DNA of 38,283 nt from an uncultured Victivallales bacterium (GTDB taxonomy: Bacteria > Verrucomicrobiota > Lentisphaeria > Victivallales > JAADHT01): positions 1 to 38,283 of the forward strand of contig CAZANS010000001.1 of NCBI GenBank assembly GCA_964486565.1, read 5' to 3'. The position numbers and the translations under genes are program-made. Every line of letters starts with the position of its first letter. Position 1 is the first letter of the stretch. Positions 275 to 38,283 of this stretch are shown here, piece by piece. The notes beneath the pieces are model-generated. The model was not told the origin of the DNA. It made no database searches and saw only the letters and a program-made list of their open reading frames with translations.

Positions 275-2821
275 ATGAACAAGCATGTGAAATTCCGTTA
301 CAAGCGCAGGCTGGTCATCTACTCGGCGCTGTTTTTTCTGATAGTCTTCTGCATCGTGGACTTCTATCTTGAGACCCGCGGTTTGCCTGAAAGCATTGCC
401 GAACCCATCAGGGCCAAGTTGCGCGAGCTGGGGCTTGAACTAGACTTTGACAAGGCCAGGTTAGGGGTTGTAAACGGTATAAACCTCAGCAATCCTGTGT
501 TGCGTACTGACGGGAGAGAGGATTTTTTTTTCCGGGCACACACGCTGAAACTTGGTTTCTCACTTGCGCCATCGCGCAGTTATCTTGTACGCATAAGCTA
601 TCTTGAGGTAAAGGACGGCGCCACAAGGTTCACGCTTTTCCCAGAGGCCGGGGAGGAGGGGGCAAACGACTGCATAAGCATCGAGAATTTCAACGCCGCT
701 GTATATGTCGAGGCGGACGAGGTCTCGATAAAATATCTTTATGGCAATCTCGACCCATTCGATTTCTCAGCCGCAGGATCATTCAGAAACATACCCTTTC
801 CAGAGTTCATGTCCCAACCGGGAAAGTCAAAGAAGGGAGCATCCTCACAGTTTAACCCCTCATCCATGTTGCGGAAGATCCCTTATCTCACGCGCGCGAG
901 GATATATCGGGAGATAATCGGGCTCCGGCAGGAGGACATCTCCCGTGGCGGCAGGCCGGCTTGCCGCCTTGTTTTCAATCTTGACGCAAGTTCGCCGGAA
1001 ATCAGCACTATAAAGGCAAACGTTTCAATCCCCGCATTCTCCGTCGGGGATTTCAAGATCACCTCGTTAAAAGGGCTTGTATCGCTCAACCAATACATCA
1101 TGCGTCTTGACAATCTGAACATGACCTTCCCGGAGGGTGGAAGCGCAGAAATAACAGCATCCCTCGACCTTTTCAAAAATGAGATTACCGGGAGGATGGC
1201 CGTCCTCATGCTTCCAGGCGAGTTCGCTAAGCTGACCCAAGGCAGGGACGTGTTCCAAATCCCTGAATCTATTGCTATCCATAACGAGCCATTCAGCATG
1301 GAGTCCAGATTGGAAAACTTCTCCATGGACTCCAAAAAATTCACCGGCGACCTGTCGGTTGCCATCCCTTCACTCTCAATAAAAAATATTCCGGTGAGGG
1401 ATTTCAAGGCGGATATCAGTGTTTCCGACAAGGTGTTCAGCACACACAGCTTCTCCTTCAGCACAGACAGCAGCAGCGTGGCGGGAGGTTTCAGATACCA
1501 CTTCAACGACGAGACGGCTGAAGCAAGCATCGTGTGCAAAGGCTCCCCAATGGTATTCATGGGGATCCTGCCTGAGGAATTCAAGAAAGTTCTGGACGAG
1601 TTCTCCAGCGAATTCGTATTGCCTTCCGACCCGGAGGATATCGAGATCAAGGCCAATGTCCACGCGCAGCTCGGAAAACCCAAACCTTTCATATTCGCCT
1701 CAGGCGTGGCGGCAATAAACAAATTCTCTTTCCGTGAAATAAACTTCACCAGCGGGATTGCAACGTTCTACCTGGATTCGGAATCTCTTTTCATAATTCC
1801 CGCAATGACCCTGCACAAGACCGACTCGATGGCCACTTTAGCTTTGGTATACGACAACAGCGACGACTACAGGAACGACCTTGAGTCGGATTACTTCAAA
1901 GACTCTGGGAAGCATAACGACAGGTTCTTATCCGAGATCAACGGCAATCTGCCGGGAGACGAGCTGTTGAAATGCATCTTCAGCTTTTGGGAGAGCGGGA
2001 CTTTGGTGATGGACAAGCCCATGCACGTGGAAGCAGGCGGAATCGTTGATTTCATCAACATACCAAACACCATCTACAGAGTAAAAATCATAGATTCTCC
2101 CGCCGAGTGGTCCCAGTTGCCGGTCGAGAACTTCAGCGCGGATCTCTTCTTCAAAGGCTACGAGATGTTCATCAAGGACGGACGGGGCAAACTTTATGGC
2201 GGCGACATGCAGATTGATTTCTTCATGGACTTGGAGACCTGGGCTGGAAAACTGGAGCTCGACATCGAAAACTCCGCCCTAGCCAGACTGAGCGAGTTCG
2301 TCGGGGAGGATATGGGCAGACAGGACAAAGGGAAGTTGTCTATTTCCTTGCGCAACGATTTCATAATAGAGGATACAGAAGAGGGAATTGACAGGACTTC
2401 CATAACTGGCAGCGGAAGAGTATGGGTCAAAGAAGCCGATCTCTGGGATATACCGATAATCAACGAGTTTGGCGAGCTGACTGCAAAGTTCACCGGAAGG
2501 GACTGGGGAAACATCACTACACTCGACGCAGATCTCGAATTCCGCAAGGATCACGTGTTCTCAGACAACATCAGGACAGATGGCACCGTAATAAGCCTGA
2601 CCGCCAAGGGAGCATTCTTCTGGGAAAACGACGACTTCAACTTCACTATACAGGCAAGATTGCTGGAATCGGCGCTGCCGCTTAAGCTGTCAAGAATATT
2701 CAACCCCCTGGCATGGATCCTGGAAAGCAGGGTCCGGCGACAGGGAAACCAGACAAAGTGGGAAAGAATCCACAAAGTAAGGAAGTTGCTGACACGGGAA
2801 TCGGATGATCCGGGGCGCTGA
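275..2821 (+). CDS. Large (848 aa) membrane-anchored hypothetical protein; one N-terminal TM helix followed by a long, probably beta-rich extracytoplasmic region
   Basis: Long uninterrupted ORF with an ATG start. N-terminal hydrophobic segment LVIYSALFFLIVFCIVDFYL. I recognise no catalytic motif. The architecture recalls AsmA/TamB-like proteins, but that is only an impression. Confidence 0.7.
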   Translation: MNKHVKFRYKRRLVIYSALFFLIVFCIVDFYLETRGLPESIAEPIRAKLRELGLELDFDKARLGVVNGINLSNPVLRTDGREDFFFRAHTLKLGFSLAPSRSYLVRISYLEVKDGATRFTLFPEAGEEGANDCISIENFNAAVYVEADEVSIKYLYGNLDPFDFSAAGSFRNIPFPEFMSQPGKSKKGASSQFNPSSMLRKIPYLTRARIYREIIGLRQEDISRGGRPACRLVFNLDASSPEISTIKANVSIPAFSVGDFKITSLKGLVSLNQYIMRLDNLNMTFPEGGSAEITASLDLFKNEITGRMAVLMLPGEFAKLTQGRDVFQIPESIAIHNEPFSMESRLENFSMDSKKFTGDLSVAIPSLSIKNIPVRDFKADISVSDKVFSTHSFSFSTDSSSVAGGFRYHFNDETAEASIVCKGSPMVFMGILPEEFKKVLDEFSSEFVLPSDPEDIEIKANVHAQLGKPKPFIFASGVAAINKFSFREINFTSGIATFYLDSESLFIIPAMTLHKTDSMATLALVYDNSDDYRNDLESDYFKDSGKHNDRFLSEINGNLPGDELLKCIFSFWESGTLVMDKPMHVEAGGIVDFINIPNTIYRVKIIDSPAEWSQLPVENFSADLFFKGYEMFIKDGRGKLYGGDMQIDFFMDLETWAGKLELDIENSALARLSEFVGEDMGRQDKGKLSISLRNDFIIEDTEEGIDRTSITGSGRVWVKEADLWDIPIINEFGELTAKFTGRDWGNITTLDADLEFRKDHVFSDNIRTDGTVISLTAKGAFFWENDDFNFTIQARLLESALPLKLSRIFNPLAWILESRVRRQGNQTKWERIHKVRKLLTRESDDPGR

Positions 2822-4493: not shown

Positions 4494-4991
4494 CTAGACC
4501 CTTCTTCTCTTGGGCGGCTTGCAGCCGTTGTGCGGAACCGGTGTGATGTCCTTCAGAGTAGTTATCTCCATTCCTGAGGCGGCAATCCCTCGCACGGCTG
4601 ATTCGCGTCCCGCGCCAGGGCCTTTTATCCTTACCTCCACCTCCCTCATCCCCAGAGCCTGTGCCTTCTTCGCAGCGTCCGTCGCTACAACCTGAGCCGC
4701 GTAGGCGGTGCTCTTGCGCGAACCTTTCATCCCGATCTTGCCTCCGCTCGACCAGCACAAGGTGTTGCCGTGCAGATCCGTGAAGGTCACTTTGGTGTTG
4801 TTGAATGTGGCGTTGACGACCGCAATCCCCGAGGGGATGGAGCGCGCGCCCTTGGCTCTCTTGACCGTTGTGGATGCCGCATCCGAGCCTTCAGGTCCCT
4901 CTGAATCCTGGGAGTCAGCAATGTCTCCCGTCAAGGTCTGCTCTTCGTTGTCGACCGGAATGTCCGCAACACTATTTTCTTTTTCCGCCAT
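4494..4991 (-). CDS. rpsK: 30S ribosomal protein S11, with a roughly 36-aa acidic N-terminal extension
   Basis: Contains [22 protein letters not shown]...[11 protein letters not shown]...[20 protein letters not shown]-like motifs. No alternative in-frame ATG lies downstream of 4991. Confidence 0.95.
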
Positions 4992-5039
4992 TGAATTATA
5001 ACCTTATTATTATATATAATTTGGAGCCCCCGCTAACTT

Positions 5040-5435
5040 CTAGTTGCCAGCGAGCTTGCGTTGAGTCTTGTCTCTAATTGCCCCTACAGTCTGCTTGCGT
5101 CCCTTGCGGGTGCGCGCGTTCGTCTTTGTGCGTTGACCGCGCACAGGCAGGCCGCGCCGGTGACGGAACCCACGGTAGGAGCCTATGGTCTGTAGCCTCC
5201 GGATATCCTGGGCGATCATTCGTCTAAGATCACCCTCGACCGTAAGCTCGTTCTGAAGGATGGAAGTTATCTTCGTGATGTGGTCGTCGGTTAGCTCGGA
5301 AGCGCGGAGCCCCTTCGGAACTCCAGCCTTCTTGGCTATCTCCAGCGCCCTGGCAGGCCCAACCCCGTAGATGTAACGCAGAGAATATTCTATCCTCTTG
5401 TTGCCGGGAATGTCAACTCCAAGTATTCGTGGCAT
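5040..5435 (-). CDS. rpsM: 30S ribosomal protein S13
   Basis: MPRILGVDIPGNKRIEYSLRYIYGVGPARA...SYRGFRHRRGLPVRGQRTKTNARTRKG. GAGGAA RBS upstream. Confidence 0.95.
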   Translation of the reverse strand: MPRILGVDIPGNKRIEYSLRYIYGVGPARALEIAKKAGVPKGLRASELTDDHITKITSILQNELTVEGDLRRMIAQDIRRLQTIGSYRGFRHRRGLPVRGQRTKTNARTRKGRKQTVGAIRDKTQRKLAGN

Positions 5436-5457
5436 AATTTATTCCTCAAATATTATA

Positions 5458-5574
5458 TTAACCCTGCCTTTGCTTATGGCGGGCATTGCGTGGACACAGG
5501 ACCCTAATGATCCCCTTTCGCTTGATTATCTGACAGTGCTCGCACCGCCGTTTCACAGAGGCTCTGACTTTCAT
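5458..5574 (-). CDS. rpmJ: 50S ribosomal protein L36 (38 aa; too short for the ORF track)
   Basis: Hand translation of the reverse complement gives [41 protein letters not shown] is at 5572-5574 and TAA at 5458-5460, 22 nt upstream of rpsM. Confidence 0.9.
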
Positions 5575-5767
5575 TTGCTACAACCTGTTTATCTTATGAC
5601 ACCAAAAAATGACTTTCCAAGGCTCCGAGGCACCCCGAAGAGCACAGGAGACCCTCGCTTTTTACGCAAGCGGACACGTAAAATAACCGTTTCTCGAATA
5701 TAGTCAAGCCACTTCGGAAGGAAAAATCAAAGAATTTTCAGGAAAGGGGTGGCAGGTGGATTAAACC

Positions 5768-6025
5768 CTAGAAGCCCAAGCTGCAGGAGCCTATGTCGCC
5801 GGAGATATGCTGATGGTGCTCCCTTGCGACCCAACCGCTCACTATCGGCTCGATAAGAAAATCCTCCAGCTCGTCCGTGAGGTCAAGCTCGCATGAACAG
5901 TAGGGACACAAGGAGAAGTACTCAATGTCGGTGCGGTTCAGCAACTCATGGCATGCCGGGCAAACCAGCATCCTTTTCATCGGGTAACCCGATATCTTGA
6001 ACTTGTAGGACCTATGCTGCTTCAT
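5768..6025 (-). CDS. Small hypothetical protein with a CxxC...CxxC zinc ribbon
   Basis: 85-aa ORF with CPACHELL...CPYCSCEL. It sits between the ACP-like gene and the rpmJ promoter region. I recognise no family. Confidence 0.5.
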   Translation of the reverse strand: MKQHRSYKFKISGYPMKRMLVCPACHELLNRTDIEYFSLCPYCSCELDLTDELEDFLIEPIVSGWVAREHHQHISGDIGSCSLGF

Positions 6026-6100
6026 GTCGATATTCTATCACAATCAATGTCAGATGTCAACCTTTAACCGGAAGGAATTCAGGTATTGCAAGGGCAAGGT

Positions 6101-6352
6101 CTATTTGCCTGCAAGCTTCGGCTCGAGATATTCAATGCAGCTATCCAGAGTCGCCAGCCGCGGATAATCCTCCTCTGGGACCTCCACTCCATATTGCTTT
6201 CTAAGCTCCATGACAATATCCAGGAAATCCATTGAGTCCAGATCCAGCTGCTCTCTGAGTTTTTGGCCGGCATCCAGCCCGGAGCAGTCGCCTTCAGGCA
6301 GGATGTCCTCGATAATTCCGACTATCGCCCCGGATATCTCTTCCTTTGTCAT
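6101..6352 (-). CDS. Acyl carrier protein-like (phosphopantetheine attachment site)
   Basis: 83 aa starting at the ATG at 6350-6352. LDLDSMDFLDIVMELRKQYGVEVPEED is a typical ACP helix II with the DS(M/L)D serine. The upstream 53 codons of the track ORF look non-coding (C/W/F-rich). Confidence 0.75.
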   Translation of the reverse strand: MTKEEISGAIVGIIEDILPEGDCSGLDAGQKLREQLDLDSMDFLDIVMELRKQYGVEVPEEDYPRLATLDSCIEYLEPKLAGK

Positions 6353-6587
6353 ATCTTTACCCTCTTCTCGTTCATTAAGATAAACAAAACCGGCAGGACC
6401 ATGCCTGCAGTCAGCTTGCCGAAGCAAGAACCATAAAACGGCTTGTAATCTAGCACATGATCCGGGCGCTGCAAGAAGGCAAAAGCAATCTTGCCAGAAA
6501 AAACATGGCAACAGGCCCTGCGCCGCTTGAAAAAAAATCCTGACTGTGTAGATTCACGGCTGAAAATGAAATGTCAAGGAGCAAAAT

Positions 6588-7298
6588 ATGATAAGACTTC
6601 CAATTAATGACGGCGATACTTCCTACGACCTTGCCCCCTCCAAGATCATTGCCCTGGGCAAGAACTATCTCGACCACATAAAGGAGCACTCGAAGATCAA
6701 CGTCTCAAATTTCGATGACGCCATCCCCGCCGAGCCAGTCCTCTTCGCCATCACCCCGAACGCCCTGGTCGGACACGGGGACCCCATCGTCATACCTTCA
6801 TTACTGAAGGGATACTCATTCGAATCACCGTCACGGGTGGACTACGAGGCCGAGCTGGCATTCGTCATCTCAAGACGATGCAAGAACATCCCGGAGGAGG
6901 ACGCGCTGGGCTATGTCATGGGATACACCTGCCTGAACGACGTGAGCCAGAGGAACCTCCAGAAGAGCGACATCTCCGGCTGGTTCAGGGGCAAATCCCT
7001 CGACACCTTCGCCCCTGTTGGCCCCAGGCTAGTGACCCCGGACAAGATCGGCGACCCACAGAACCTCCGTCTTTCATGCCGGCTGAACGGCAAGACCGTC
7101 CAGGAATCCAGAACCTCGATGATGATATTCAACATACCCAAGATGATAGCCTTCATCTCTAGAAACTTCACGCTCGAGCCCGGAGACCTGATAACCACAG
7201 GCACACCCGCAGGTGTCGGCCCGATCAAGCACGGGGACATAGTCGAGGTCGAGATCGAGAACATCGGTGTCCTCAGCAACGACGTCGTCGAGGAATAA
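6588..7298 (+). CDS. Fumarylacetoacetate hydrolase (FAH) family protein
   Basis: Contains DYEAELAFVI...GYTCLNDVSQRNLQ...W.RGKSLDTFAPVGP...PGDLITTGTPAGVG. AAGGAG RBS before the ATG. Confidence 0.9.
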   Translation: MIRLPINDGDTSYDLAPSKIIALGKNYLDHIKEHSKINVSNFDDAIPAEPVLFAITPNALVGHGDPIVIPSLLKGYSFESPSRVDYEAELAFVISRRCKNIPEEDALGYVMGYTCLNDVSQRNLQKSDISGWFRGKSLDTFAPVGPRLVTPDKIGDPQNLRLSCRLNGKTVQESRTSMMIFNIPKMIAFISRNFTLEPGDLITTGTPAGVGPIKHGDIVEVEIENIGVLSNDVVEE

Positions 7299-7381
7299 GG
7301 GGCTTGGAGCGCAGGGATGCTCCGCCGGCGCAGTCCTGTCCAAGGAAGTGACCTTGAACCCGTGATCGGCGAGGCCCTTGA

Positions 7382-7447
7382 CGAAATGCCTGGTGCATAC
7401 CGTCAACTGTCTGTGCCCGCTATTTCATCGTGGCGAATGCCTTGCCT
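7382..7447 (+). repeat. Interspersed repeat family R2, module A, copy 1
   Basis: 66 nt, cgaaatgcctggtgcataccgtcaactgtctgtgcccgctatttcatcgtggcgaatgccttgcct. By eye it matches the reverse complement of 18186-18251 at 59/66 positions. It overlaps the last codons of the 7420-8139 gene. Confidence 0.8.
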
Positions 7448-8139
7448 GAGATGCAATCCATCCAGTGCTCTAGGAAGAATTTCTTTTCTTGGGGGAGCAG
7501 GTCTTCGGAGGTGCCGACAAGCGGGCGCAGGGCGGTCATCATCTGCAGGGAGGTGAGCAAAAATATCACGGCCCAGAATCTGACGAAGACAAGCTTTGTG
7601 GCATCTCTGCGCTTAATGGCCATATATATGAATCGGTTGCCGAAGGACAGGCTGACCAGCCAGAAGAGCAGGTGGAAGAACCCCATGAAGGCTATCCCGT
7701 TGGTGGACTGCGAGAACACCCATGCCACCGGAGCGAAACCGGTAAGCAGGATGGCGCAGAGGGTCAGGCTGCCAAGCATGATCGCGAAGGACTCACCGGG
7801 GGATATGTCGGCCTGGGCAAGGCAGGAGAAAATATAGAAGCTGGGGAAACAGAACAGCGCCGTGAGCGCGAGCCCCGCCCAGATTTTCAATGGCGCGAGA
7901 TATATCTGCGACCCGCCGGAGAAGCTGCCGACGACGGCTCCGTAAGCCAACATCCCTACGCTCAGGACAATCAGGATGCCGACCATTGTGCCCCATCGCT
8001 CGCCGCCCGGCTTGAGCCCGTCCACGAGTGCGGCGGGGTTCTTGAGCAGCACCTCCACTGTCCTCATCGGTCCGACAAGGCCTTGATTGTTCTTCCACGG
8101 CTCCCCTGACATGTTCCTTTCTTCCTGACTGGCATTCAT
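7420..8139 (-). CDS. Five-TM integral membrane protein (Yip1-like topology), paralog of 8213-8920; last gene of the membrane operon
   Basis: AAGGAGG lies 5 nt before the ATG at 8137-8139. About 5 hydrophobic helices. The C-terminal motif LRPLVGTSED..FFLEHW parallels LRPFIGTPGAPVEFFREAAFEGNF in the neighbouring gene. Confidence 0.8.
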   Translation of the reverse strand: MNASQEERNMSGEPWKNNQGLVGPMRTVEVLLKNPAALVDGLKPGGERWGTMVGILIVLSVGMLAYGAVVGSFSGGSQIYLAPLKIWAGLALTALFCFPSFYIFSCLAQADISPGESFAIMLGSLTLCAILLTGFAPVAWVFSQSTNGIAFMGFFHLLFWLVSLSFGNRFIYMAIKRRDATKLVFVRFWAVIFLLTSLQMMTALRPLVGTSEDLLPQEKKFFLEHWMDCISGKAFATMK

Positions 8140-8212
8140 TGCGACCTCCTTAATACTGTTATTCCCGATTCAATCTGTGATCCCGAATCTATTGAGCCAT
8201 GTCGCCTGCTAT

Positions 8213-8920
8213 TCAGAGCAGACGCAATGCTGTAATCCATACGATCTCTAAGAAATTCCCTTCGAATGCGGCTTCCCTGAAGAACTCCACGGGGGCGCCC
8301 GGGGTGCCGATGAAAGGCCTCAATATCCATGACAACTGTCCGCCGAGAAGAAGATTTACCGCCAGCCAAGCCAGGATTATCTGCGAGGCGTGGAGTCTTG
8401 ATTTGCCGACATGCTCGACCAGACGGTGCAGATGCAGGTTCGACATGGTCCCGGCGAAGGCTATTACCAGAACGATTGACAGCAGTATGGCCCTGTAGGC
8501 ACTGTTGGCGCCCTCCATGTCATCCATGGCTGGTGCGTTGAGAACCATGAAGATCACCAGCGTCGAGAGCGACCCGAGGATGATTGACGCGACAGCGAAC
8601 GACATGAGAACGGCCATAATGGACTTTCTGAAGCCTATCGGGACACCCAGAACCTGTGCGAGAGCCCCGTTGAGAATGCCGTTGCCAAGGGTGGTCAGCA
8701 GTATTAGCATTGGGAACTTCAGTGCGACGAAGGTAGCCTGCAGCGGTGCGCGCCAGATGCCCACGGCAAACCCGAACGAGCTGCTTCCAAGGATAATCCA
8801 GAAGAGACATGAAAAGAGTTTGCCGGTGTGGCCGGGCTCAAGCCATGCCGATAGCTCGCCGGGCTTTCCCCTGCAAAGGGTTGTCAGGTCTGCGCAGACT
8901 GCCTGTAAAAATGTCTTCAT
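8213..8920 (-). CDS. Five-TM integral membrane protein (Yip1-like topology), paralog of 7420-8139
   Basis: Its ATG at 8918-8920 overlaps the TGA of the upstream gene (ATGA). Same TM pattern and C-terminal LRPxxGT motif as 7420-8139. Confidence 0.8.
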   Translation of the reverse strand: MKTFLQAVCADLTTLCRGKPGELSAWLEPGHTGKLFSCLFWIILGSSSFGFAVGIWRAPLQATFVALKFPMLILLTTLGNGILNGALAQVLGVPIGFRKSIMAVLMSFAVASIILGSLSTLVIFMVLNAPAMDDMEGANSAYRAILLSIVLVIAFAGTMSNLHLHRLVEHVGKSRLHASQIILAWLAVNLLLGGQLSWILRPFIGTPGAPVEFFREAAFEGNFLEIVWITALRLL

Positions 8921-9171
8921 TTCATACTGAAAAGTGTCGCCGTGGCGATTCTAAGCAAGACGCATGCCGGTAGAAGGGTTATGACAAAGACGCGAAATGC
9001 GACGAATAGCAGTGCCGCGGCCATGTGAGAGATATCCGCCCCGCTGCCACGGGCAAGCAGCTTCGATGCAACATCGTTGCGCGAGCAGTAGACGGAAAGA
9101 ACATAGTATATCACCAGGATCAGCACTATCCCCGCCAGGTCTAGGAGGTGTCTTTTGTATGCTGTCTTCAT
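8917..9171 (-). CDS. Small (84 aa) two-TM membrane protein
   Basis: It has ATGA overlaps at both ends (9168-9171 and 8917-8920). Two hydrophobic helices: GIVLILVIYYVLSVY and AAALLFVAFRVFVITLLPACVLL. Confidence 0.65.
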   Translation of the reverse strand: MKTAYKRHLLDLAGIVLILVIYYVLSVYCSRNDVASKLLARGSGADISHMAAALLFVAFRVFVITLLPACVLLRIATATLFSMK

Positions 9172-11456
9172 TTATCATCCCTTTCAGGCGCGGTAAGCAT
9201 GGCGAATATTATAGCGTTGCCGATGGCTCCCCCGGTGATGAACTGGAGTTTGCCGTCCCTTTGGGAGGGAGCACCCGCGAGGCACAGAGTGGCATAGAGC
9301 CTGATGAAGAAATGCCTGTCACGGAACATCCTCGCACCGGAGATTGAAAATCCCGTGGCCGAGGCGCTGAAACCCAGGAATATAGGCCCGGAGTCTATAT
9401 CGCCTGTTTCACCTCGCAGCCCTGCCGGGTACTCCTTCACCCCGCCGAATCTCAGGAATGATGAAGACAGCTCGTCCTTGAGGCTTTTGTAGAGCCTCCC
9501 TGCCATGGCTGGCTCCCCGAAGGAAAGCATGTAGATGCCCAGGGATGTTCCCGAGCCTCTGGGGTGGTCCGCCCTTTCGCCGGACAAGGGATTTATGCAC
9601 TGTATCAGCAGCCCGGTATCCTTGTCGGTATAGCGCGCCTCTAGGAGACGAAGGGATTCCTCCAGAAGCTCCCCGCTGCCCATCCCAGTGAGTTTATGGT
9701 GCAGCATTGCCGAGCCCAGCACGGCGCAGTTGTCAACGGGGTAAATCTCGCCGGGGTAGCTCTGCAGCAGGCGCAGGGTGCTTTGTCCGAGCCTGTCGAG
9801 CAGGTGTTTTGATATGCGGTCGTTCAGTTCAGCGAACCTCGACTCCAACACCAAGCTGCGATGCAGCGAGAGCGCAAGATTGAAGTAGCCAAGAAACGCC
9901 GCATGGTCCTTTTCAGATCCGATATCGTCTATCGGGTCGCTGCCCCACACCTCCAGGTCGAAGGATCTGGTGCCGGGATCAAGAATCCTGTCCAGGCAAA
10001 GCTCCATCGAGGAAAGATGCTGCTGTCTATGTTCGGCGTGCTTCATGGCCATCTGCCCGAAGCCCATCGCCGCCATCATGTATGACCCGAAAAGCCATTC
10101 CCCGTCGAACTGCGCCGATCCAGTGGAGAAATTCTCCCTTGAAAGGGATTGCCTGACAATGAAGTCAACATGGCGTGCCAGGGCGTTCTGGAGCGCGGGA
10201 TCGTTGTCGTACCACAGCCCTGCCCCCCTCGAGCACCACCAAGCCGGGAAAGAGTACAAGGCAATGACGAAGATCGCCGCGCAGGCCGAAGCCTTGGCGA
10301 TTGCCTTGAATTTAGGAATCCTCATTCCCTTGTGGAGGCCGAAGGCCTTTGCCGCCACCGAGCACACCAGGCCGAATGGCAGATAGCCCGAGTACCCCAA
10401 AACAGGCATCTCGAATATCCTCATCGCGTCAACGTAGGGTATGGCGTATGTCCACTTGGCGAGGCTGTGCCAGTTCCACATCTCCCAGAAGAAACCGCAG
10501 CACAGCGCCGCTGCCGCCAGCAGGCAGACATCTCTCCAGTCGCCGTCTGCGATATCCGCAAGGAATGTTTTTCTGCCGTAGAGCATCATCGTGGCCGACA
10601 GCATTCCCAGCGGCGCGAGCCAGAGCAGCGGGAAGAGCTGGCTTGGGAATATCCCGAGCATCAGCATCCCCGCGGAGGACAACAGGAAGATTGTCGCGGC
10701 GGCAGGCTTGGAATCGAGTCTAAAACAGATGAATCTGTCTAGCCCGGGAGACAGCCGGGGAAATGAACCGAGCAGGTCGCGTGTGCCCAGCACTGCCGGG
10801 AGGACAGTCGAGAAAGGAAGCGTGGCGAAAAGAAAATATTCCATAGCGCCCATGCCGCAGACACCCTCGTAAAACCAGTTCTGAACAAAACGGTTGAGAT
10901 ATTCGAAACTCCACCAGAAGCACGCGCTGGCCAGGAAAAGAGACGCGAAATATGTCTTGTTGTCCAGCATCATGCACCTTCCCGTCCGCCTGGATGCACA
11001 TGCGTTGACTGTCACAATGTAGGACACCCACAAGGGTGTAAATGTCATGTCCTGGAAACTAGAGAACCACTCGAGGCGTGTCCATGCCAGGAACCAGGAG
11101 CATATCCCGGCAACTATCCCCAGTGTTCCCCACCAGGGCCACTTGTGCCTTTCCCCCTGTTTATCCTGTCTATCAGAGCCGTTCAGGTCACCGCCCCCGG
11201 GGAGCTTGCGAAATTCGCAGAGGTTCGCTTTTACGACTCTCGCGACAAACAGGCAGACTACCGCGATGACAAGCATAGCCAGGAGGGCGAATGCCACCCA
11301 TGAGAACCCCGCATGCTCGACGTACTGCGAGACCGGGGGGAACTCGAGGTATCCGGGGGTAAGCCTCCCCGTCAAGCGAAGACCCGCCAAAGGCAGCAGA
11401 AGCAGCAGAAGGGCTGTCCCTGCCATAGCTTCCGGATAACGCACCCTGTTGTTCAT
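9168..11456 (-). CDS. Large (762 aa) polytopic membrane protein with a roughly 370-aa soluble alpha-helical C-terminal domain; function unknown
   Basis: I use the ATG at 11454-11456, which overlaps the TGA of the regulator gene (ATGA). The track ORF continues to 11774, but that stretch overlaps the regulator in another frame and is R/G/A-rich junk. The N-terminal half has many TM helices and the motif FWEMWNWHSLAKWTYAIPYV..FEMPVLGYSGYLPFG. The C-terminal half is hydrophilic and helical. Confidence 0.85.
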   Translation of the reverse strand: MNNRVRYPEAMAGTALLLLLLPLAGLRLTGRLTPGYLEFPPVSQYVEHAGFSWVAFALLAMLVIAVVCLFVARVVKANLCEFRKLPGGGDLNGSDRQDKQGERHKWPWWGTLGIVAGICSWFLAWTRLEWFSSFQDMTFTPLWVSYIVTVNACASRRTGRCMMLDNKTYFASLFLASACFWWSFEYLNRFVQNWFYEGVCGMGAMEYFLFATLPFSTVLPAVLGTRDLLGSFPRLSPGLDRFICFRLDSKPAAATIFLLSSAGMLMLGIFPSQLFPLLWLAPLGMLSATMMLYGRKTFLADIADGDWRDVCLLAAAALCCGFFWEMWNWHSLAKWTYAIPYVDAMRIFEMPVLGYSGYLPFGLVCSVAAKAFGLHKGMRIPKFKAIAKASACAAIFVIALYSFPAWWCSRGAGLWYDNDPALQNALARHVDFIVRQSLSRENFSTGSAQFDGEWLFGSYMMAAMGFGQMAMKHAEHRQQHLSSMELCLDRILDPGTRSFDLEVWGSDPIDDIGSEKDHAAFLGYFNLALSLHRSLVLESRFAELNDRISKHLLDRLGQSTLRLLQSYPGEIYPVDNCAVLGSAMLHHKLTGMGSGELLEESLRLLEARYTDKDTGLLIQCINPLSGERADHPRGSGTSLGIYMLSFGEPAMAGRLYKSLKDELSSSFLRFGGVKEYPAGLRGETGDIDSGPIFLGFSASATGFSISGARMFRDRHFFIRLYATLCLAGAPSQRDGKLQFITGGAIGNAIIFAMLTAPERDDK
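11206..11220. repeat. Iterated near-palindrome TGCGAAWTTCGCA, exact copy 1
   Basis: ttgcgaaattcgcag, inside the 762-aa membrane protein gene, read as C-E-F-R-K. Confidence 0.85.
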
Positions 11457-11854
11457 GATGCACCACCTCGCAGGCGAACAGCGGCGACACCGCCGCCATG
11501 CGGTATAGCGGCGTCCTTTGCCCTCGCAGCAGGCAAAGCGCTCATGGCCTCCCTCAGCACAAGCTCCAAGGCCCGCAGATAATCGTTGAACTGATCCACT
11601 CCCTTCTCTGAAAGACGGATGGTGGTGCAAGGCTTCAGCCTGACGAACTTCTTGCTGAGCTTTACCGCTCCCGCGTCCTGGAGGACCTTTAGATGCCGGT
11701 TCAGATTGCCGTCGGAGGCCTCGCAGGCCAGCTTGAGCTCGGTGAAGGTCATCCCTCCCGAGCTCGACGCGCACAGCGCCGACATGATCGCCAGGCGCTT
11801 CGGCTCATGGAATATCTTCTTCAAATCGTCGTAGGGATTGTCTTGCTTAATCAC
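11453..11854 (-). CDS. Winged-helix (ArsR/MarR-like) transcriptional regulator
   Basis: IFHEPKRLAIMSALCA..GMTFTELKLACEASDGNLNRHLKVLQDAGAVKL.K.F..LKPCTTIRLSEKG is a typical wHTH with a beta-wing. GTG start, preceded by GAGGTGA at a 6-nt spacing. Confidence 0.85.
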   Translation of the reverse strand: MIKQDNPYDDLKKIFHEPKRLAIMSALCASSSGGMTFTELKLACEASDGNLNRHLKVLQDAGAVKLSKKFVRLKPCTTIRLSEKGVDQFNDYLRALELVLREAMSALPAARAKDAAIPHGGGVAAVRLRGGAS

Positions 11855-11866
11855 TATTTTATCACC

Positions 11867-12470
11867 TCAATTCCCTTCTCTGCCATTTTCCCTCAGAAGA
11901 ATCATCCCCCCGACCGTCTCACCCACAAAAAATACCAGCCCCATCGGCCAAGCATTCGCAAAGGGCTGCGGGAAAACAAGAAAAAAAGCCCCGCAGGCCA
12001 TGTAGAACACGCCAACAAGATAATTGGCTCCAGGAAGATTGTTGCGGTAGGGCACATGCACCAAACCATACAATCCCATCCACATCCCGGGAAGCAGAAT
12101 AGTTTGACCGTGAAGAATCAACGACACTGAAAACACCGCCCCCCATCCCCAAGGCCGGCAGCGCATCAAACGCCGGGACAAGCCTGTCCAGACTCCGCCG
12201 AGCCTCGGGACTGTACAAAAACCAGTGGATCAATGAACCGTAATTCAACAAAAGCCCCAACGCCAGCACCACACCCCAACCAGCAAGCCGGGCATTGTCC
12301 GAAGCAGCCAGCACACCAGGCAACGACATCACCACCGCACCGCACAAAGCCGCAAGACCACCAAATATCCGCCCCCTACCCGAATATCCCCGGAAATTCT
12401 TGCGCTCCATCACCAGAGACTGAAGACGCCTCACCTGATCCAAGGCATCATGAACATGACTCGCTATCAT
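11867..12470 (-). pseudogene. Multi-TM membrane protein gene split by a +1 frameshift at a homopolymer (ORFs 11919-12503 and 11867-12181); first gene of the operon
   Basis: Frame A reads like a TM protein until ...PAFDALPALGMGG, then turns into implausible sequence. Frame B reads AVFSVSLILHGQTILLPGMWMGLYGLV...VFFVGETVGG from the same point. The switch coincides with the C6 run at 12139-12144 (G6 on the coding strand). The likely start is ATG 12468-12470 (MIASHV...), preceded by GGGGA. Confidence 0.6.
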
Positions 12471-12527
12471 AAACAAATCCCCATGAAATATCCAACTCAA
12501 CATCCAGCTTTACCGCAAAAACTAAGG

Positions 12528-12565
12528 ATAATATGACATCTAAAAAGTACTTTGCAAGGCAAAGT
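12528..12565 (-). promoter_or_regulatory. Candidate sigma70-type promoter with an overlapping 7-3-7 inverted-repeat operator, upstream of the membrane operon
   Basis: On the minus strand: ACTTTGC-CTT-GCAAAGT (12565-12549) contains TTGCAA (12557-12552), followed by an 18-nt spacer and TATTAT (12533-12528). It lies about 60 nt upstream of the first gene. Confidence 0.4.
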
Positions 12566-12677
12566 TTAAAGTTTTTTCGGTTTTTTTCTGCTGTAGGGCA
12601 ATTGTGTGGCCTCTTTGCGGGGTCGGCGCTACGGCACTGGAGGTGGAACAGGGGGAGGTGAGTGATGCTTGCCTGCC

Positions 12678-13499
12678 TCAGGCGGTTCTTTTCTTGACGG
12701 GCTTGTGGACTTTGCCGAAGTACTGCATGACTTTCTGGAGGTCTTCCCAGACGAGTTTCTTGGCATCCTGGTTTCTGAGGAGATACGCCGGATGGAAGGT
12801 TGGCATGACTTTGATCCCTTGGTAGGAGTCCCATCTGCCCCGGAGGCCTGTGATCCCGGCCTTGTTGAGGATATGCTTTAAGGGGACTGCGCCCAGGAGG
12901 ACGATGACCTTGGGGGAAACGATCTCGATCTGGCGCTTGAGGAAGGGCATGCAGGTCTTGGCCTCGGAGTCTTCCGGCACTCTGTTCCCAGGCGGTCTGC
13001 ACTTGACGATATTGGCGATGTAGACATCCGAGCGCTGGAACTGCATCGAGCCGATCATCTTGGTGAGGAGCTGTCCGGCGGCACCGACGAAGGGCACGCC
13101 CTGGTTGTCATCCTCGCTCCCGGGAGCCTCGCCTATGAACATCAGCTCCGCCGGAGCCTGACCGCAGCCGAAGACAACGTACTTCCTTCCATTGTGCAAG
13201 GGGCATCGGGTGCACTTCACAGCGACCTGGCGCAGTGTCTGCATATCCATGGATGACAGATCCGGCATCGGGGTCGCTGCAATGGATGCCTCAAGTTTCG
13301 GCACAGGCGGGTTTTTCGAGCCGGACAGCAGGATGGCGGGCCTCCCCTTCCGGGTGTCGGTGCCCCTGGCGGACGTAGCCGGACCGGAAAAGAACTCCGA
13401 CATGGCTCCAGACGACAAATCTGCGAATTTCGCAGACTCGCCCTCTATCTGAAGGGTCGTGACGATATCGTCAAACAATGTGATGGTGTCGCGGGTCAT
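12678..13499 (-). CDS. Uracil-DNA glycosylase, family 4
   Basis: Contains CTRCPLH....VVFG.G...ELMFIGEAPGSEDDNQGVPFVGAAGQLL......YIANIVKCRPPGNR.P......C.PFL..QI.......IVLLG...........HPAYLLRN. The first ATG is at 13497-13499; the track start at 13526 is a TTG. Confidence 0.9.
   Translation of the reverse strand: MTRDTITLFDDIVTTLQIEGESAKFADLSSGAMSEFFSGPATSARGTDTRKGRPAILLSGSKNPPVPKLEASIAATPMPDLSSMDMQTLRQVAVKCTRCPLHNGRKYVVFGCGQAPAELMFIGEAPGSEDDNQGVPFVGAAGQLLTKMIGSMQFQRSDVYIANIVKCRPPGNRVPEDSEAKTCMPFLKRQIEIVSPKVIVLLGAVPLKHILNKAGITGLRGRWDSYQGIKVMPTFHPAYLLRNQDAKKLVWEDLQKVMQYFGKVHKPVKKRTA
13421..13435. repeat. Iterated near-palindrome TGCGAAWTTCGCA, exact copy 2
   Basis: ctgcgaatttcgcag, inside the UDG gene, read on the coding strand as A-K-F-A. 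This is a different frame from copies 1 and 4. Confidence 0.85.
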
Positions 13500-14086: not shown

Positions 14087-16192
14087 CTACCAGTCCCTCA
14101 GGTTTTTTTTTGTCCTGGTGGATTTTTTCTCACGTTCTTTGAGTGCGTCACGGAGGTCTTTTTCCTCGTCGGCCATGAGTTCGAGGAGAGCCTCTGCCTG
14201 TGCGGGGTCTATCTCGCTCTCCTCCGGGGAGGCTTCCGCATCGGTTTCGCGAGTATCTTTATCAGGGCGCCTGTCTTGGGGCAGCTCACGATACTCCTGC
14301 TGCTCGGGCTTGTCCTTGTCCTCCCCCTTTTCGTTTTGGCTTTCGCTATCCTTATCGTCGTCTTTCTTTTCGGAGGCACCGAGGTGGTCCAGGGCGTTCT
14401 TGATATGATCCGCTGACTTTTCGCCCTTACCATCGCCGTGCTCGCTCATGGCCTGCTCGAGCTGCTCGAGAGCCTTGGTGGAGCTTTGCTCGATCTCCTT
14501 GTCCTGCTGTTTTTTCGCCTCCTCCTGGAGCTCCTGGACGGCATCTGCCGCCTGCTCCAGCTTTTCCTTTGTATCCCGGCGCTGCTGTTCCTTCTGTTGT
14601 TCGTCCTTTTGTTGGTTTTCCTTCTGTTGCTGCTGCATTGCCTGCTGTGTCTTGTCAACCGCGTTCTGCTGCTTGTCCTTCATGTCCTGCTGCATTTGTT
14701 TGATTTCCTTGGCCAGGGCGCGGTCGTGGAGAAGTTTCTGCTGGTTCAGGATCACATTTTTGAGGCTGGTGTCAGAGCGCATGGCCTCACGGTACAGCTC
14801 CTCTGTCCTGTCGAATACCTTAAGGGCCTTGTCTGGATTCCCCATCATCTCCTCTCGGCCGACAGTGTGTGATATCACACCAAGATTCTGGAAGGACTTC
14901 CCCCTTACCTCGGGCATGTCGGCAGACATGTTCACTGCCCTGTTGTATAGCTCGGCGGCCTCTGCCGTGTCTCCTTCGCGATGAAGCCTGAGGCCCTCAT
15001 TGTAGATATCTACAGCTGACCCTTTTGTTTGTTCTCTGACAGCCGGTTCGGGGTGGATCTCTCCCCCGAGTTCTAGTCCCCCGGAGCAAAATGCCATGCC
15101 GCCACCGAGGAAGCCGTCGAGGAACACGGCAAGAAACACCATCAGCGCCAGAGTTTTCGTTTCGCCTGCCGCCCTGAGTCTGGGAACTCCATTCCTCCTC
15201 TCCCCTATGCCTATACGGACAAGCAGCAGAAGCACCGCCGCAAGAAGCGGATAGTGAAACCTCTCTATCGGCCTCTTGTTGTGACCTTTCTCAAGCTCCC
15301 TTGGGACAAGGTTCCTGACTTTCTGAAGCACCGGCTGTAGCTCGGGCGAAGTCTCTGTTGAACGAGCGTATATCCCGCCCTCGACAGACATTGCCAGCGC
15401 CCTGAGGAGAGGCTCGTTGAGCCTGCTCACGACCAGCTCGCCAGCGGAATCGCGCAACAGGGCCGTCCTGCCGTCGTCGCCTCGGATTTTTATCAACCCA
15501 TCGCCGTCGGGATCTCCTATGCCAACAACAAATATCGGAATCTTCATCACCCTCAGCCTGTCAAGGGACTTTCGGGAATCCCCGTCCAGCTCGTCGCCGT
15601 CGGTCACAAGTATTATCGCCCTATGGCTCCCCTCGGCACCCTCGAACGCAGTCAGCGCAACACGTAGCGCCTGCTCGATGTTAGTTCCCCCCAAAGGGAT
15701 GCTGTCCGTGTTCAGCTCGTCCAGTGTGTGCATGAAGCTGGTCTTGTCAATCGTGAGGGGGCACTCGAGGAATGCGGACCCTGCGAACGCGATCAACCCG
15801 AAGCGGTCGCCCGGGCATTCCTTCACAAGCTCCCTCAGCAAAAGCTTGGCATGTTGAAGACGGCTGGGCTTAACATCTTCGGAGAGCATGCTCTTGGACA
15901 CGTCCAGCAAGACCATCAGATCCCTGCCCTGTCCCGAGAATGGAAGAATCTGCCAGCCCCATCTCGGCCTTGCCATCGCTACGACAAGCAGGCATATCGC
16001 GCAGAAAAGCAGCCACACCCGCAGATAGCGCCTCCCCTTTGAAAGGGTGGTGACCTGATGCTCGTCGGGGTTCCCGCCGAATATTGAGGTTAGCAAGTTT
16101 TTTTTCCTGACCGAAACGTAGTATACGAGCAGGGCGAAAACAGGCACTATCAGTGCCAGGCTCAGCAGAGACCATACGTTTTCGAATTCCAT
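14087..16192 (-). CDS. BatB-like von Willebrand factor A protein fused to a TPR region and a roughly 200-aa K/E/Q/D-rich tail
   Basis: N-terminal TM pair, then the VWA MIDAS motif DLMVLLDVSKSM...GGTNIEQAL...IILVTDGDE. A further TM segment follows, then a TPR-like stretch (AELYNRAVNM...FQNLGVI) and a low-complexity charged C-terminus. Confidence 0.9.
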   Translation of the reverse strand: MEFENVWSLLSLALIVPVFALLVYYVSVRKKNLLTSIFGGNPDEHQVTTLSKGRRYLRVWLLFCAICLLVVAMARPRWGWQILPFSGQGRDLMVLLDVSKSMLSEDVKPSRLQHAKLLLRELVKECPGDRFGLIAFAGSAFLECPLTIDKTSFMHTLDELNTDSIPLGGTNIEQALRVALTAFEGAEGSHRAIILVTDGDELDGDSRKSLDRLRVMKIPIFVVGIGDPDGDGLIKIRGDDGRTALLRDSAGELVVSRLNEPLLRALAMSVEGGIYARSTETSPELQPVLQKVRNLVPRELEKGHNKRPIERFHYPLLAAVLLLLVRIGIGERRNGVPRLRAAGETKTLALMVFLAVFLDGFLGGGMAFCSGGLELGGEIHPEPAVREQTKGSAVDIYNEGLRLHREGDTAEAAELYNRAVNMSADMPEVRGKSFQNLGVISHTVGREEMMGNPDKALKVFDRTEELYREAMRSDTSLKNVILNQQKLLHDRALAKEIKQMQQDMKDKQQNAVDKTQQAMQQQQKENQQKDEQQKEQQRRDTKEKLEQAADAVQELQEEAKKQQDKEIEQSSTKALEQLEQAMSEHGDGKGEKSADHIKNALDHLGASEKKDDDKDSESQNEKGEDKDKPEQQEYRELPQDRRPDKDTRETDAEASPEESEIDPAQAEALLELMADEEKDLRDALKEREKKSTRTKKNLRDW

Positions 16193-21847: not shown

Positions 21848-22825
21848 TCAGTCGAAGGCGTGTCCTGCCGAGCCGAGGACCATGATGTTCTTGTGTTTGT
21901 ACAAGTCCTTGAGGGCGTCACGTGCGGGGCCGAGGTATTTCCTCGGGTCGAACTCGGAAGGCTTCTCGGCGAAGGTCTTGCGGATGGCTGCGGTCATGGC
22001 CAGGCGTCCGTCAGAGTCTATATTGATCTTGCATACGGCGGATTTGGCGGCTTCGCGGAGCTGGTCCTCTCCGATGCCGATTGCATCCTTGAGCTGTCCG
22101 CCAAATTTGTTTATTGTCGCCACTAGTTCCGCCGGGACGGATGACGAGCCGTGCAGGACTATCGTGAACCCGGGTATGCGCTTCTCGATCTCGGCAAGGA
22201 TGTCGAGACGTATCTTCGGGTCGGTGCCGGGTTTGAACTTGAATGCACCGTGCGACGTGCCGATAGCAATCGCAAGGCTGTCCACATTGGTCTTGGAGAC
22301 GAACTCCTCGACCTCGTCGGGCTGAGTGTAGATGTGCTCAGCGGCCTCTACATCGTCCTCCTTGCCGGCAAGCACACCGAGCTCGCCCTCGACAGTGACA
22401 TCGTACTTGTGGGCGTACTCCACTACCTTCTTGGTCTCCTCGATGTTCTTTTCGAACGAGTGGTGGGAGCCATCAATCATGACCGACGAGAACCCGTACT
22501 CGATGCAGCTCTTGCATATCTCGAAGTCGGAGCCGTGGTCCAGATGCACGGCTATGGGTATGAGCTTCCCTTTTCCTATTTCCCTGGCGTACTCCACCGC
22601 GCCCTGGGCCAGATAGCGCAGAAGCGTCTGGTTGGCATACTCGCGCGCACCCTTGGATATCTGCAGAATCACCGGAGACTCTGTCTCCACGCAAGCGGAG
22701 ATGATGGCCTGCAACTGCTCCATGTTGTTGAAATTGTACGCCGGCACGGCATACTTCCCCTTCATCGCCTTGGCAAACATCTCACGGGTGTTCACGAGAC
22801 CCAGATCACGATAGCTGATAGCCAT
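21848..22825 (-). CDS. fba: Fructose-bisphosphate aldolase, class II
   Basis: Contains YAVPAYNFNNMEQLQAIISACVETESPVILQISKGAREYA, VHLDHG, GELG..AG.ED and LVLHGSSSVP. I use the ATG at 22823-22825, preceded by AGGAGGAAAA; the track ORF starts 28 codons earlier. Confidence 0.95.
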   Translation of the reverse strand: MAISYRDLGLVNTREMFAKAMKGKYAVPAYNFNNMEQLQAIISACVETESPVILQISKGAREYANQTLLRYLAQGAVEYAREIGKGKLIPIAVHLDHGSDFEICKSCIEYGFSSVMIDGSHHSFEKNIEETKKVVEYAHKYDVTVEGELGVLAGKEDDVEAAEHIYTQPDEVEEFVSKTNVDSLAIAIGTSHGAFKFKPGTDPKIRLDILAEIEKRIPGFTIVLHGSSSVPAELVATINKFGGQLKDAIGIGEDQLREAAKSAVCKINIDSDGRLAMTAAIRKTFAEKPSEFDPRKYLGPARDALKDLYKHKNIMVLGSAGHAFD

Positions 22826-23016
22826 TTTTCCTCCTGAAAAATTGTTGATGCTAAAATTTAAAATAACATGTGTCCACGCTCCGGCCATGCCCCGGGAAAC
22901 CAAAGACAACCAGGGAAACAGCCGCCAGCCTGAGACAAATCCAGCCTATAGCTCGGAAATTACCCCCTTTCACCTACTTTGCAAGCAAAAGTCAAAAGAA
23001 ATACACAAACGAGATG

Positions 23017-38117: not shown

Positions 38118-38124
38118 AATAATT

Positions 38125-38283
38125 TCACCTTGCCTCGAAAGATATCCTCGGGTCAACCAGGACGTAAAGGAAGTCAGAGACCATTATCCCTGCCAGCGTG
38201 AGAAAGCCCCCGAAACCGAAGAGCGCCATCAGCAAAGGGATGTCCCTGCTGCTCAGGGCCTCCATGGAAAGCGTACCCATCCC
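38125..38283 (-). CDS. ABC transporter permease (Opp/Dpp BC-type), C-terminal fragment; the gene continues beyond the window
   Basis: Hand translation of the reverse complement gives GMGTLSMEALSSRDIPLLMALFGFGGFLTLAGIMVSDFLYVLVDPRISFEAR*. The ending (D..Y...DPRI) is characteristic of OppB/DppB-type permeases. TGA at 38125-38127. Confidence 0.75.
   Translation of the reverse strand, partial: GMGTLSMEALSSRDIPLLMALFGFGGFLTLAGIMVSDFLYVLVDPRISFEAR

Follow-up and report, generated by a model that had tools for sequence, protein, structure and literature searches.

In Bacillus subtilis, the ArsR-type autorepressor SdpR is sequestered by a polytopic membrane protein, SdpI. In eukaryotes, the SREBP-SCAP-Insig system couples a membrane component to a factor that controls 3-hydroxy-3-methylglutaryl-CoA (HMG-CoA) synthase and other isoprenoid genes. 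Linalool dehydratase/isomerase (LDI) of Castellaniella defragrans (PF18566; EC 4.2.1.127/5.4.4.4) and its membrane-anchored homologue Lis of Thauera linaloolentis act on isoprenoid alcohols, and the anchor of Lis comprises four transmembrane (TM) helices in 139 amino acids (PMC4791888). Here we analyzed a six-gene operon, with genes designated A to F in the order of transcription, located on a 38,283-nt stretch of DNA from an uncultured Victivallales bacterium (GenBank assembly GCA_964486565.1, contig CAZANS010000001.1, positions 1 to 38,283; hereafter the window). Gene A encodes a membrane protein, B a winged helix-turn-helix (wHTH) regulator, and C to F four further membrane proteins; the genes that follow B, here and in related loci, are referred to as cargo. 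Comparison of these loci suggests that the operon is probably part of a so far undescribed system for sensing or managing the isoprenoid lipids of the cell envelope, in which A, B and a palindromic operator are constant, while the cargo varies and in other lineages includes HMG-CoA synthase, IspH or UppS.

Three features recall SdpR-SdpI: the wHTH gene adjoins one for a polytopic membrane protein, the operon carries the operator at its own promoter, and control of the regulator through its membrane partner is plausible. Unlike in SdpR-SdpI, the membrane-protein gene comes first, no toxin is encoded, the cargo includes core biosynthetic enzymes, and neither partner shows detectable homology. 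The SdpR/SdpI comparison, offered as an analogy in an earlier first-pass annotation of the window, is therefore retained as a reasonable mechanistic analogy for A and B only and does not extend to homology, given that B scored 13.3 bits against the repress_SdpR model (cut-off 100) and that neither an SdpI family nor a toxin was detected. The proposed regulatory logic resembles that of known membrane-coupled repressors, by analogy only. With ArsR/SmtB and HTH_34 repressors such as PH1061 (PDB 1UB9), B shares fold, size and a palindromic operator overlapping the promoter; it differs in lacking a metal motif, in being paired with A, and in having an operator conserved over at least four phyla. 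The likeness to SREBP-SCAP-Insig would be purely functional, without homology, B being a presumed soluble repressor whereas SREBP is a membrane-tethered activator released by proteolysis.

To define the conserved part of the system, the A alignment was searched against species-representative genomes, which returned 67 loci (numbered with the prefix L) from Verrucomicrobiota, Kiritimatiellia, Lentisphaerae, Planctomycetota, Calditrichia and one Acidobacteriota metagenome-assembled genome. B adjoined A in 63 of the 65 loci with room for it. Where at least 3 kb of flank was available (51 loci), the membrane domain of protein C, termed Cn, followed B in 27 cases. Its C-terminal partner domain, LDI-like or divergent, was then part of the same protein or encoded by the next gene; many loci carried Cn with a divergent C-terminal domain or with none. 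C came after B in roughly every second locus and only a minority had E/F; one locus (L001) contained the same list of parts in another order, A-B-F-E-C-D. The expectation of conserved synteny was thus borne out, although not for the six-gene set as a unit: the constant part consists of A, B and the operator. Elsewhere, the genes after B encoded E with F, CreD, DUF4153 proteins, B12-binding radical-SAM enzymes, an exosortase with a VIT-domain protein, or an M50 peptidase with an ATP-grasp protein.

Three enzymes of isoprenoid synthesis were found among the cargo, and Pfam confirmed the cargo identities. Seven loci had HMG-CoA synthase as their sole cargo gene. In the set of 51 with sufficient flank, HMG-CoA synthase was present in four loci and UppS in five, with the IspH loci in addition. 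The UppS genes belonged to five Calditrichia loci. At the IspH/LytB loci (L007, L008, L200), E and F come next, with DUF1361 after them in L007 and L008, and the 206-213-aa protein encoded upstream is a distant homologue of A. Kiritimatiellae produce isoprenoids via the mevalonate pathway (PMC5148204), so that HMG-CoA synthase represents the pathway entry enzyme in this group.

Two further types of cargo recurred. An exosortase-like protein of ~200 aa was repeatedly paired with a ~980-aa VIT-domain membrane protein ending in a TM-plus-basic tail, downstream of C-type genes in L009, L010, L013, L025, L039, L042, L043, L049 and L051; sometimes accompanied by CarboxypepD_reg-domain proteins, this pair resembles a protein-sorting cassette in the same regulon. 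B12-binding radical-SAM enzymes bearing DUF4070 were found beside Cn or directly after B, often with their own operator (L002/L003, at 4753-7940; L022, L038, L047, L048, L060, L073, L074 and L077).

The operator is the 17-bp palindrome ACTTTG-N5-CAAAGT, an exact copy of which occupies positions 12549-12565 of the window, its outer edge coinciding with the end, 12565, of the region delimited by the first-pass annotation. When up to one mismatch is allowed, 51 non-redundant loci have the palindrome upstream of A, with a median distance of 62 nt. Exact sites numbered 48 in 1.15 Mb of fetched loci, compared with ~0.07 expected for 12 specified bases. Nearly all copies either precede A or lie in the gap separating B from the first cargo gene, and in 16 loci the palindrome was repeated before cargo genes. 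The operator-preceded cargo comprised C, F, B12-radical-SAM genes, DUF4153, CreD, a Cn::UppS fusion, HMG-CoA synthase (L040, L044, L062) and IspH (L007, L008, L200); in the five Calditrichia loci, UppS was preceded by the variant GCTTTG-N5-CAAAGC, in which the outermost base is changed. The palindrome was absent from loci carrying a stand-alone Cn but no A-B pair.

The consensus upstream of A reads aaaa..t.aACTTTGt.TTGCAAAGTacTTTGc..t.tg.ta...T. A -35-like TTGCAA is embedded in the palindrome and followed after 17-18 nt by a -10-like element (consensus matches only), and the loci share this layout, TTGCAA in the palindrome and then TGnTAnnnT; some have a consensus TTGACA just upstream, so that the palindrome falls in the spacer. 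B is the only DNA-binding protein common to the related loci and is presumed to be the repressor acting on the palindrome; binding with repression is the simplest reading, given that the core promoter and the site overlap. In an independent metagenome scan with a 23-nt operator, a B-family gene was present within ~1 kb in 33 of the 80 loci read.

Several observations on operator-like sites stand apart from this. The other 47 of these 80 operator-pattern loci (L080-L159) had no detectable B gene, and their sites were mostly intergenic; the products encoded downstream include an MMPL/sterol-sensing-domain transporter (L156), DUF6498 and DsbD_2 proteins and a Wza-like exporter. These loci may belong to the regulon as distal members, may serve related HTH_34 regulators in other phyla, or may have matched by chance (tens of chance matches are possible by a rough estimate from an assumed collection size), and we draw no conclusion from them. 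Within the window, a one-mismatch site, ACTTTGCAAGCAAAAGT, lies at 22976-22992, ~67 nt upstream of a minus-strand gene for class II fructose-bisphosphate aldolase (21848-22909); it may be a regulon member or a chance occurrence, as 0.87 sites with up to two mismatches are expected per window. A terminator scan scored the palindrome of the operon as a weak intrinsic terminator (7-bp stem, T-run) for the upstream gene, encoding uracil-DNA glycosylase, and a dual role is possible. A main role as terminator was rejected, since the conservation ahead of A extends beyond base pairing to the sequence itself and is independent of which gene lies upstream.

B matched the Pfam models HTH_34 (64.9 bits, 7.6e-18), HTH_20 (35.6 bits, above its cut-off) and HTH_5 (26.7 bits; cut-off 22), which places it among the ArsR-type wHTH proteins, and the solved structures nearest to it are PH1061 and ArsR. 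The recognition helix LTDGNLxRHL is invariant in the family. The protein consists of ~100 residues of wHTH without a sensory or ligand domain. In the family alignment we detected neither a conserved CxC metal motif nor an alpha5 His/Asp/Glu site, only single Cys residues, each present in 73-79% of members, and B fell below the cut-off of the NCBIfam model HTH_metalloreg (31.4 versus 55 bits).

Gene A had been read as a frameshifted multi-TM gene. The multi-TM assignment stands, whereas the frameshift proved to be a single extra G in a G6 run at 12139-12144 and the gene is not decayed. Removal of one G yields a 200-aa open reading frame (ORF) identical (100%, full length) to P0241 from an independent Logan assembly; the corresponding contig (L076, run ERR5010701) matches window positions 11358-12778 at 99.93% over 1421 nt, the sole difference being G5 instead of G6 at this run. 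Homologues of A elsewhere are intact, at 194-225 aa. The extra G is either a homopolymer error of sequencing or assembly, or a strain or slippage variant. Because A is intact in the independent assembly and in its homologues, we treat it as a functional gene. Hydropathy indicates about 5 TM helices, preceded by a conserved basic N-terminal cytoplasmic helix, and members of the family alignment share 40-76% identity. Profile searches revealed no relative of A in Pfam or the PDB. A relationship of A to E/F was considered and rejected (hhalign probability 0.2%).

Protein C consists of two dissimilar parts. Cn is its conserved core, with dozens of invariant W, F, Y, E, N, R and C positions across phyla in the alignments, including the motifs FWWxFEYLNRFVQNWYY and GFFWEMWN. 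Clustering of the Cn family at 50% identity gives 1574 clusters, and most members stand alone, with lengths of 360-390 aa. It corresponds to no Pfam family and has no PDB relative by profile search, and a Foldseek search with a model of this domain alone (predicted local distance difference test, pLDDT, 81) gave a best E of 0.36. An internal duplication of Cn, suggested by repeated motifs, was rejected after hhalign of the two halves returned a probability of 0.1%.

The C-terminal ~350 residues of C are homologous to LDI and far less conserved than Cn. The C-family profile matched the LDI chains of the PDB at E 1e-21 (hmmsearch), and several C homologues carry PF18566, although the C protein of the window alone falls below the Pfam reporting level. 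In an AlphaFold (AF2) model of C with a pLDDT of 90.8, the barrel matched LDI by Foldseek at E 1e-10 with a TM-score of 0.70-0.78; the next-best structural matches, GH76 and N-acylglucosamine-epimerase (AGE) barrels, followed far behind. C and LDI thus share the (alpha/alpha)6 barrel, but a profile alignment showed that the catalytic residues of LDI are replaced in C: C171 by Ser, C180 by Asp (within SYPGEIYPVDNC in the window) and H129 by Tyr. The soluble C-terminal domain reported previously thus has a recognizable relative in LDI, and the accompanying statement that no catalytic signature is present requires revision, as an enzyme-like LDI fold is recognizable from which the LDI catalytic residues are absent. 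C also lacks a monoterpene-catabolic context. As in Lis, the barrel of C is tethered to an N-terminal membrane segment, which in Lis is the short four-helix anchor and in C consists of ~10-11 conserved helices that themselves form a large family.

A single ORF, P0372, joins Cn to a complete UppS (cis-prenyltransferase) domain (Pfam Prenyltransf, 2.8e-78). It occupies 870-2894 of L077, a contig from Logan SRR30503342, where A, B and an exact operator directly precede it and a B12-radical-SAM gene comes next. Because UppS, a cytoplasmic enzyme, is fused directly after the last Cn helix, the C-terminus of Cn would be cytoplasmic; because one further TM helix (383-408) precedes the barrel in the C protein of the window, the barrel would be periplasmic. 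The LDI-like domain is thus probably located on the periplasmic side, in agreement with the K/R-rich loops. This side would probably be common to C and LDI, the barrel of C being membrane-fused and LDI secreted.

Gene D is translationally coupled through ATGA overlaps on both sides. Small two-TM ORFs homologous to D directly follow LDI-type C genes in L001, L025 and L048 and share the 4-nt overlap, and a D-like two-TM ORF after C is probable in L002. The E family, with more than 1248 homologues, is marked by the motifs WRAPLQ, KFPLLILLTTLGN and QLSWIxRPFIGxP, and profile searches assigned it to no Pfam family and no PDB relative. E and F had been described as paralogous; they are so as distant paralogues of ~18% identity, for which BLASTP is marginal (E=0.02 over 39 residues only) and which hhalign aligns at the profile level (F against E, 95.9% probability, E 5e-9, 185 columns). 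F always adjoins E in related loci; the pair lies next to C in L001, L011, L014, L021 and L022, and next to IspH in L007, L008 and L200.

Re-reading of the ORF positions and junctions in the sequence confirmed the first-pass annotation of six tightly coupled, co-directional genes on the minus strand, at the same coordinates (Table 1). ATGA start/stop overlaps connect B to C (11453-11456), C to D (9168-9171) and D to E (8917-8920); A and B are separated by a 12-nt spacer that includes GAGGTGA, and the start codon of B is a GTG at 11854. A gap of 73 nt separates E from F, which is preceded by AAGGAGG at 8145-8151, 5 nt before its ATG at 8139. Upstream lies the uracil-DNA glycosylase gene, and downstream are a convergent FAA-hydrolase gene, the acyl carrier protein gene, rpoA and rpsK (S11). 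Because these flanking genes are unrelated housekeeping genes, the unit is bounded at about 7420-12570. As read from the sequence, this is a real six-gene operon whose membrane proteins are almost all unannotated. Pfam, NCBIfam and PADLOC scans agreed with the earlier view that a wHTH regulator is paired here with polytopic membrane proteins outside described families. At E<=1, Pfam and NCBIfam returned noise only for the five membrane proteins, and these scans, together with PADLOC, assigned none of them to a transporter or catalytic family; no profile of a transporter superfamily (ABC, MFS, RND and others) matched. Among the anti-phage models of PADLOC, only the generic wHTH of B resembled an entry, the Csa3-type HTH, with nothing for the membrane proteins. 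Rfam, run over the whole window at gathering thresholds, reported no RNA family, and no riboswitch in the leader. Synteny is conserved, and no characterized family accounts for the cluster.

Table 1 Features of the operon and its promoter region in the window
Feature	Positions	Strand	Description
Gene A	11867-12470	minus	200-aa membrane protein, ~5 TM
Gene B	11453-11854	minus	133-aa winged-helix regulator (HTH_34/ArsR-like)
Gene C	9168-11456	minus	762 aa; Cn membrane domain and LDI-like barrel
C, Cn domain	10332-11456	minus	residues 1-375, ~10 helices
C, linker TM and barrel	9168-10331	minus	TM residues 383-408; (alpha/alpha)6 barrel ~410-762
Gene D	8917-9171	minus	84 aa, two TM helices
Gene E	8213-8920	minus	235-aa membrane protein, 5-6 TM
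Gene F	7420-8139	minus	239-aa membrane protein, 5 TM
Operator palindrome ACTTTGCcttGCAAAGT	12549-12565	minus	exact match in window
Degenerate third half-site ACTTTTT	12542-12548	minus	directly after palindrome
Sigma-70-like promoter	12528-12557	minus	-35 TTGCAA 12552-12557, 18-nt spacer, -10 TATTAT 12528-12533

Other genes of the window include those for a BatA-like protein and RecN. The former, a 701-aa BatA/VWA-domain protein (14087-16192, minus strand), has a long, low-complexity, highly charged C-terminal half rich in E, K, Q and D, a composition that produces a strong AT skew (-0.455) in that 1-kb bin. No Pfam model matched the 848-aa ORF at 275-2821 (plus strand) at E<=0.001. A 973-aa Ser/Thr protein kinase with C-terminal HEAT/Armadillo repeats (35235-38156, minus strand) shows an architecture typical of bacteria of the Planctomycetota-Verrucomicrobiota-Chlamydiota (PVC) group.

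These results lead us to propose a model in which B would bind ACTTTG-N5-CAAAGT over the -35 box and the spacer, thereby repressing A, itself and the downstream cargo. A would act as a membrane-embedded sensor that sets the activity of B, for example by sequestering or releasing it; A is the likely sensor because B has no ligand domain and A is its invariant, translationally coupled neighbor. The signal and the cargo may concern membrane isoprenoid lipids, most likely the polyprenyl-phosphate carrier pool, and the same A-B-operator module would drive HMG-CoA synthase, IspH or UppS in other lineages. The isoprenoid theme is suggested by these three enzymes behind the operator, together with the Cn::UppS fusion and the LDI-like domain. 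In the window, the cargo comprises C, in which Cn is tethered to a barrel with a different active site, D as a small partner, and the E/F pair, and these proteins may bind, modify or translocate an isoprenoid lipid. The first-pass annotation had taken co-translation to indicate a stoichiometric membrane complex; this generic view is not upheld, as the interchangeable cargo and the isoprenoid enzymes of other lineages point to isoprenoid-lipid biology. The conserved, modular regulon of which the locus is one instance, and its parts, are shown by computation; that B represses, A senses in the membrane and the cargo acts on isoprenoid or polyprenyl lipids is a reading inferred from them, whose chances we judge to be about even. 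More tentatively, and as a possibility that we would not favor at present, A and B may constitute a lipid-feedback switch, in which A monitors C55-P/C55-PP or another isoprenoid pool and gates B, which through the operator would control the entry or exit enzymes of isoprenoid supply (HMG-CoA synthase, IspH, UppS). Cn, E/F and other cargo might then be unrecognized enzymes or flippases for new polyprenyl diphosphate, such that, for example, de novo C55-PP is moved to the periplasmic face, where the LDI-like domain acts.

Several points weigh against the isoprenoid-lipid model. The link to isoprenoids is one of guilt by association, all carriers derive from uncultured genomes, and every mechanistic step is a prediction. 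B and the palindrome are connected by their co-occurrence alone, and the palindrome holds the -35-like box, so that promoter conservation could explain part of its constancy. A single 4.7-kb contig is the only source of the Cn::UppS fusion, which could be a merger of two adjacent genes introduced by gene calling or assembly, in which case the adjacency alone would still be informative. The LDI-like domain may only bind a ligand, possibly a glycan, as GH76 and AGE barrels are its next-best matches, and the genes beside stand-alone Cn, inspected in Nitrospira, Bacillota and two other cases, gave no clue. Much of the cargo, moreover, has no known lipid role, namely CreD (a "cell envelope integrity protein" in NCBI naming), DUF4153, DUF1361 and DUF4345 proteins, the exosortase with its VIT protein, the M50 peptidase and the ATP-grasp protein, which makes a non-specific envelope-stress regulon the strongest rival. 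In such a regulon of general membrane integrity, A would sense any perturbation and B would de-repress lineage-specific protective proteins, the isoprenoid enzymes being one output among several, providing hopanoid or more carrier lipid for repairs, while the sensed variable would lie elsewhere; their presence in only a minority of the loci fits this account. However, three different isoprenoid enzymes have been recruited independently behind the same operator in three clades, and Cn is fused physically to UppS and, in C, to an isoprenoid-enzyme fold. Such an enrichment is hard to explain by a non-specific regulon, and we regard this rival as possible but rather doubtful.

A small autoregulated ArsR-like wHTH beside a polytopic membrane protein, with the operator at the promoter and a faint match of B to the SdpR model, would be expected of an SdpR/SdpI-type immunity system, in which the membrane protein sequesters the autorepressor upon encountering a toxic peptide and so induces C to F. 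The SdpR match is far below its cut-off, Pfam places none of A, C, D, E and F in an immunity family, whether of SdpI type or another, neither the window nor the related loci contain a toxin or bacteriocin gene, and housekeeping biosynthetic enzymes make no sense as immunity cargo, all of which renders immunity improbable. Since LDI is the closest relative of the C barrel in both structure and sequence, and Lis provides a precedent for a membrane-anchored LDI homologue, C might alternatively be a membrane-anchored isomerase/dehydratase like that of Thauera, serving the catabolism or detoxification of monoterpenes (linalool, geraniol or myrcene) under a substrate-responsive B. We consider this still less probable: the three LDI catalytic residues are replaced, no Atu, Liu or geoA/geoB genes occur near the operon or in related loci, and the most conserved part of C is Cn, a widespread family rather than a simple 4-TM anchor, which often carries a divergent C-terminal domain or none. 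Least probable of all, and in our view very remote, is a classical ArsR/SmtB metal or metalloid operon whose membrane proteins are efflux or sequestration parts; B does exceed the HTH_5 (arsR family) cut-off and resembles ArsR structures, but it misses the metalloregulator threshold and its family conserves none of the metal sites, Pfam and NCBIfam found no ArsB, Acr3, CDF, P-type ATPase or other transporter family, and the cargo in other lineages is biosynthetic.

Literature searches on the co-occurrence of DUF4153, CreD, DUF1361 and HTH_34 and on an LDI-linked membrane operon returned no description of this system, and neither a family model nor a solved structure nor a publication came to light for A, Cn, D, E/F, the operator or the regulon. 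The supply of isoprenoids and lipid carriers limits the synthesis of peptidoglycan, lipopolysaccharide and exopolysaccharide, and how bacteria sense this supply and control it transcriptionally is largely unknown. The system described here offers a testable handle on this question, consisting of one small repressor, an invariant membrane partner and a 17-bp operator placed before HMG-CoA synthase, IspH and UppS. It also provides a working functional context for A, Cn and E/F, sizeable families without a Pfam model or a detectable relative among solved structures. Should the lipid link prove wrong, the module would still represent an undescribed, widespread envelope regulon of PVC bacteria; should the feedback switch prove true, it would be a prokaryotic functional counterpart of SREBP/SCAP-type control.

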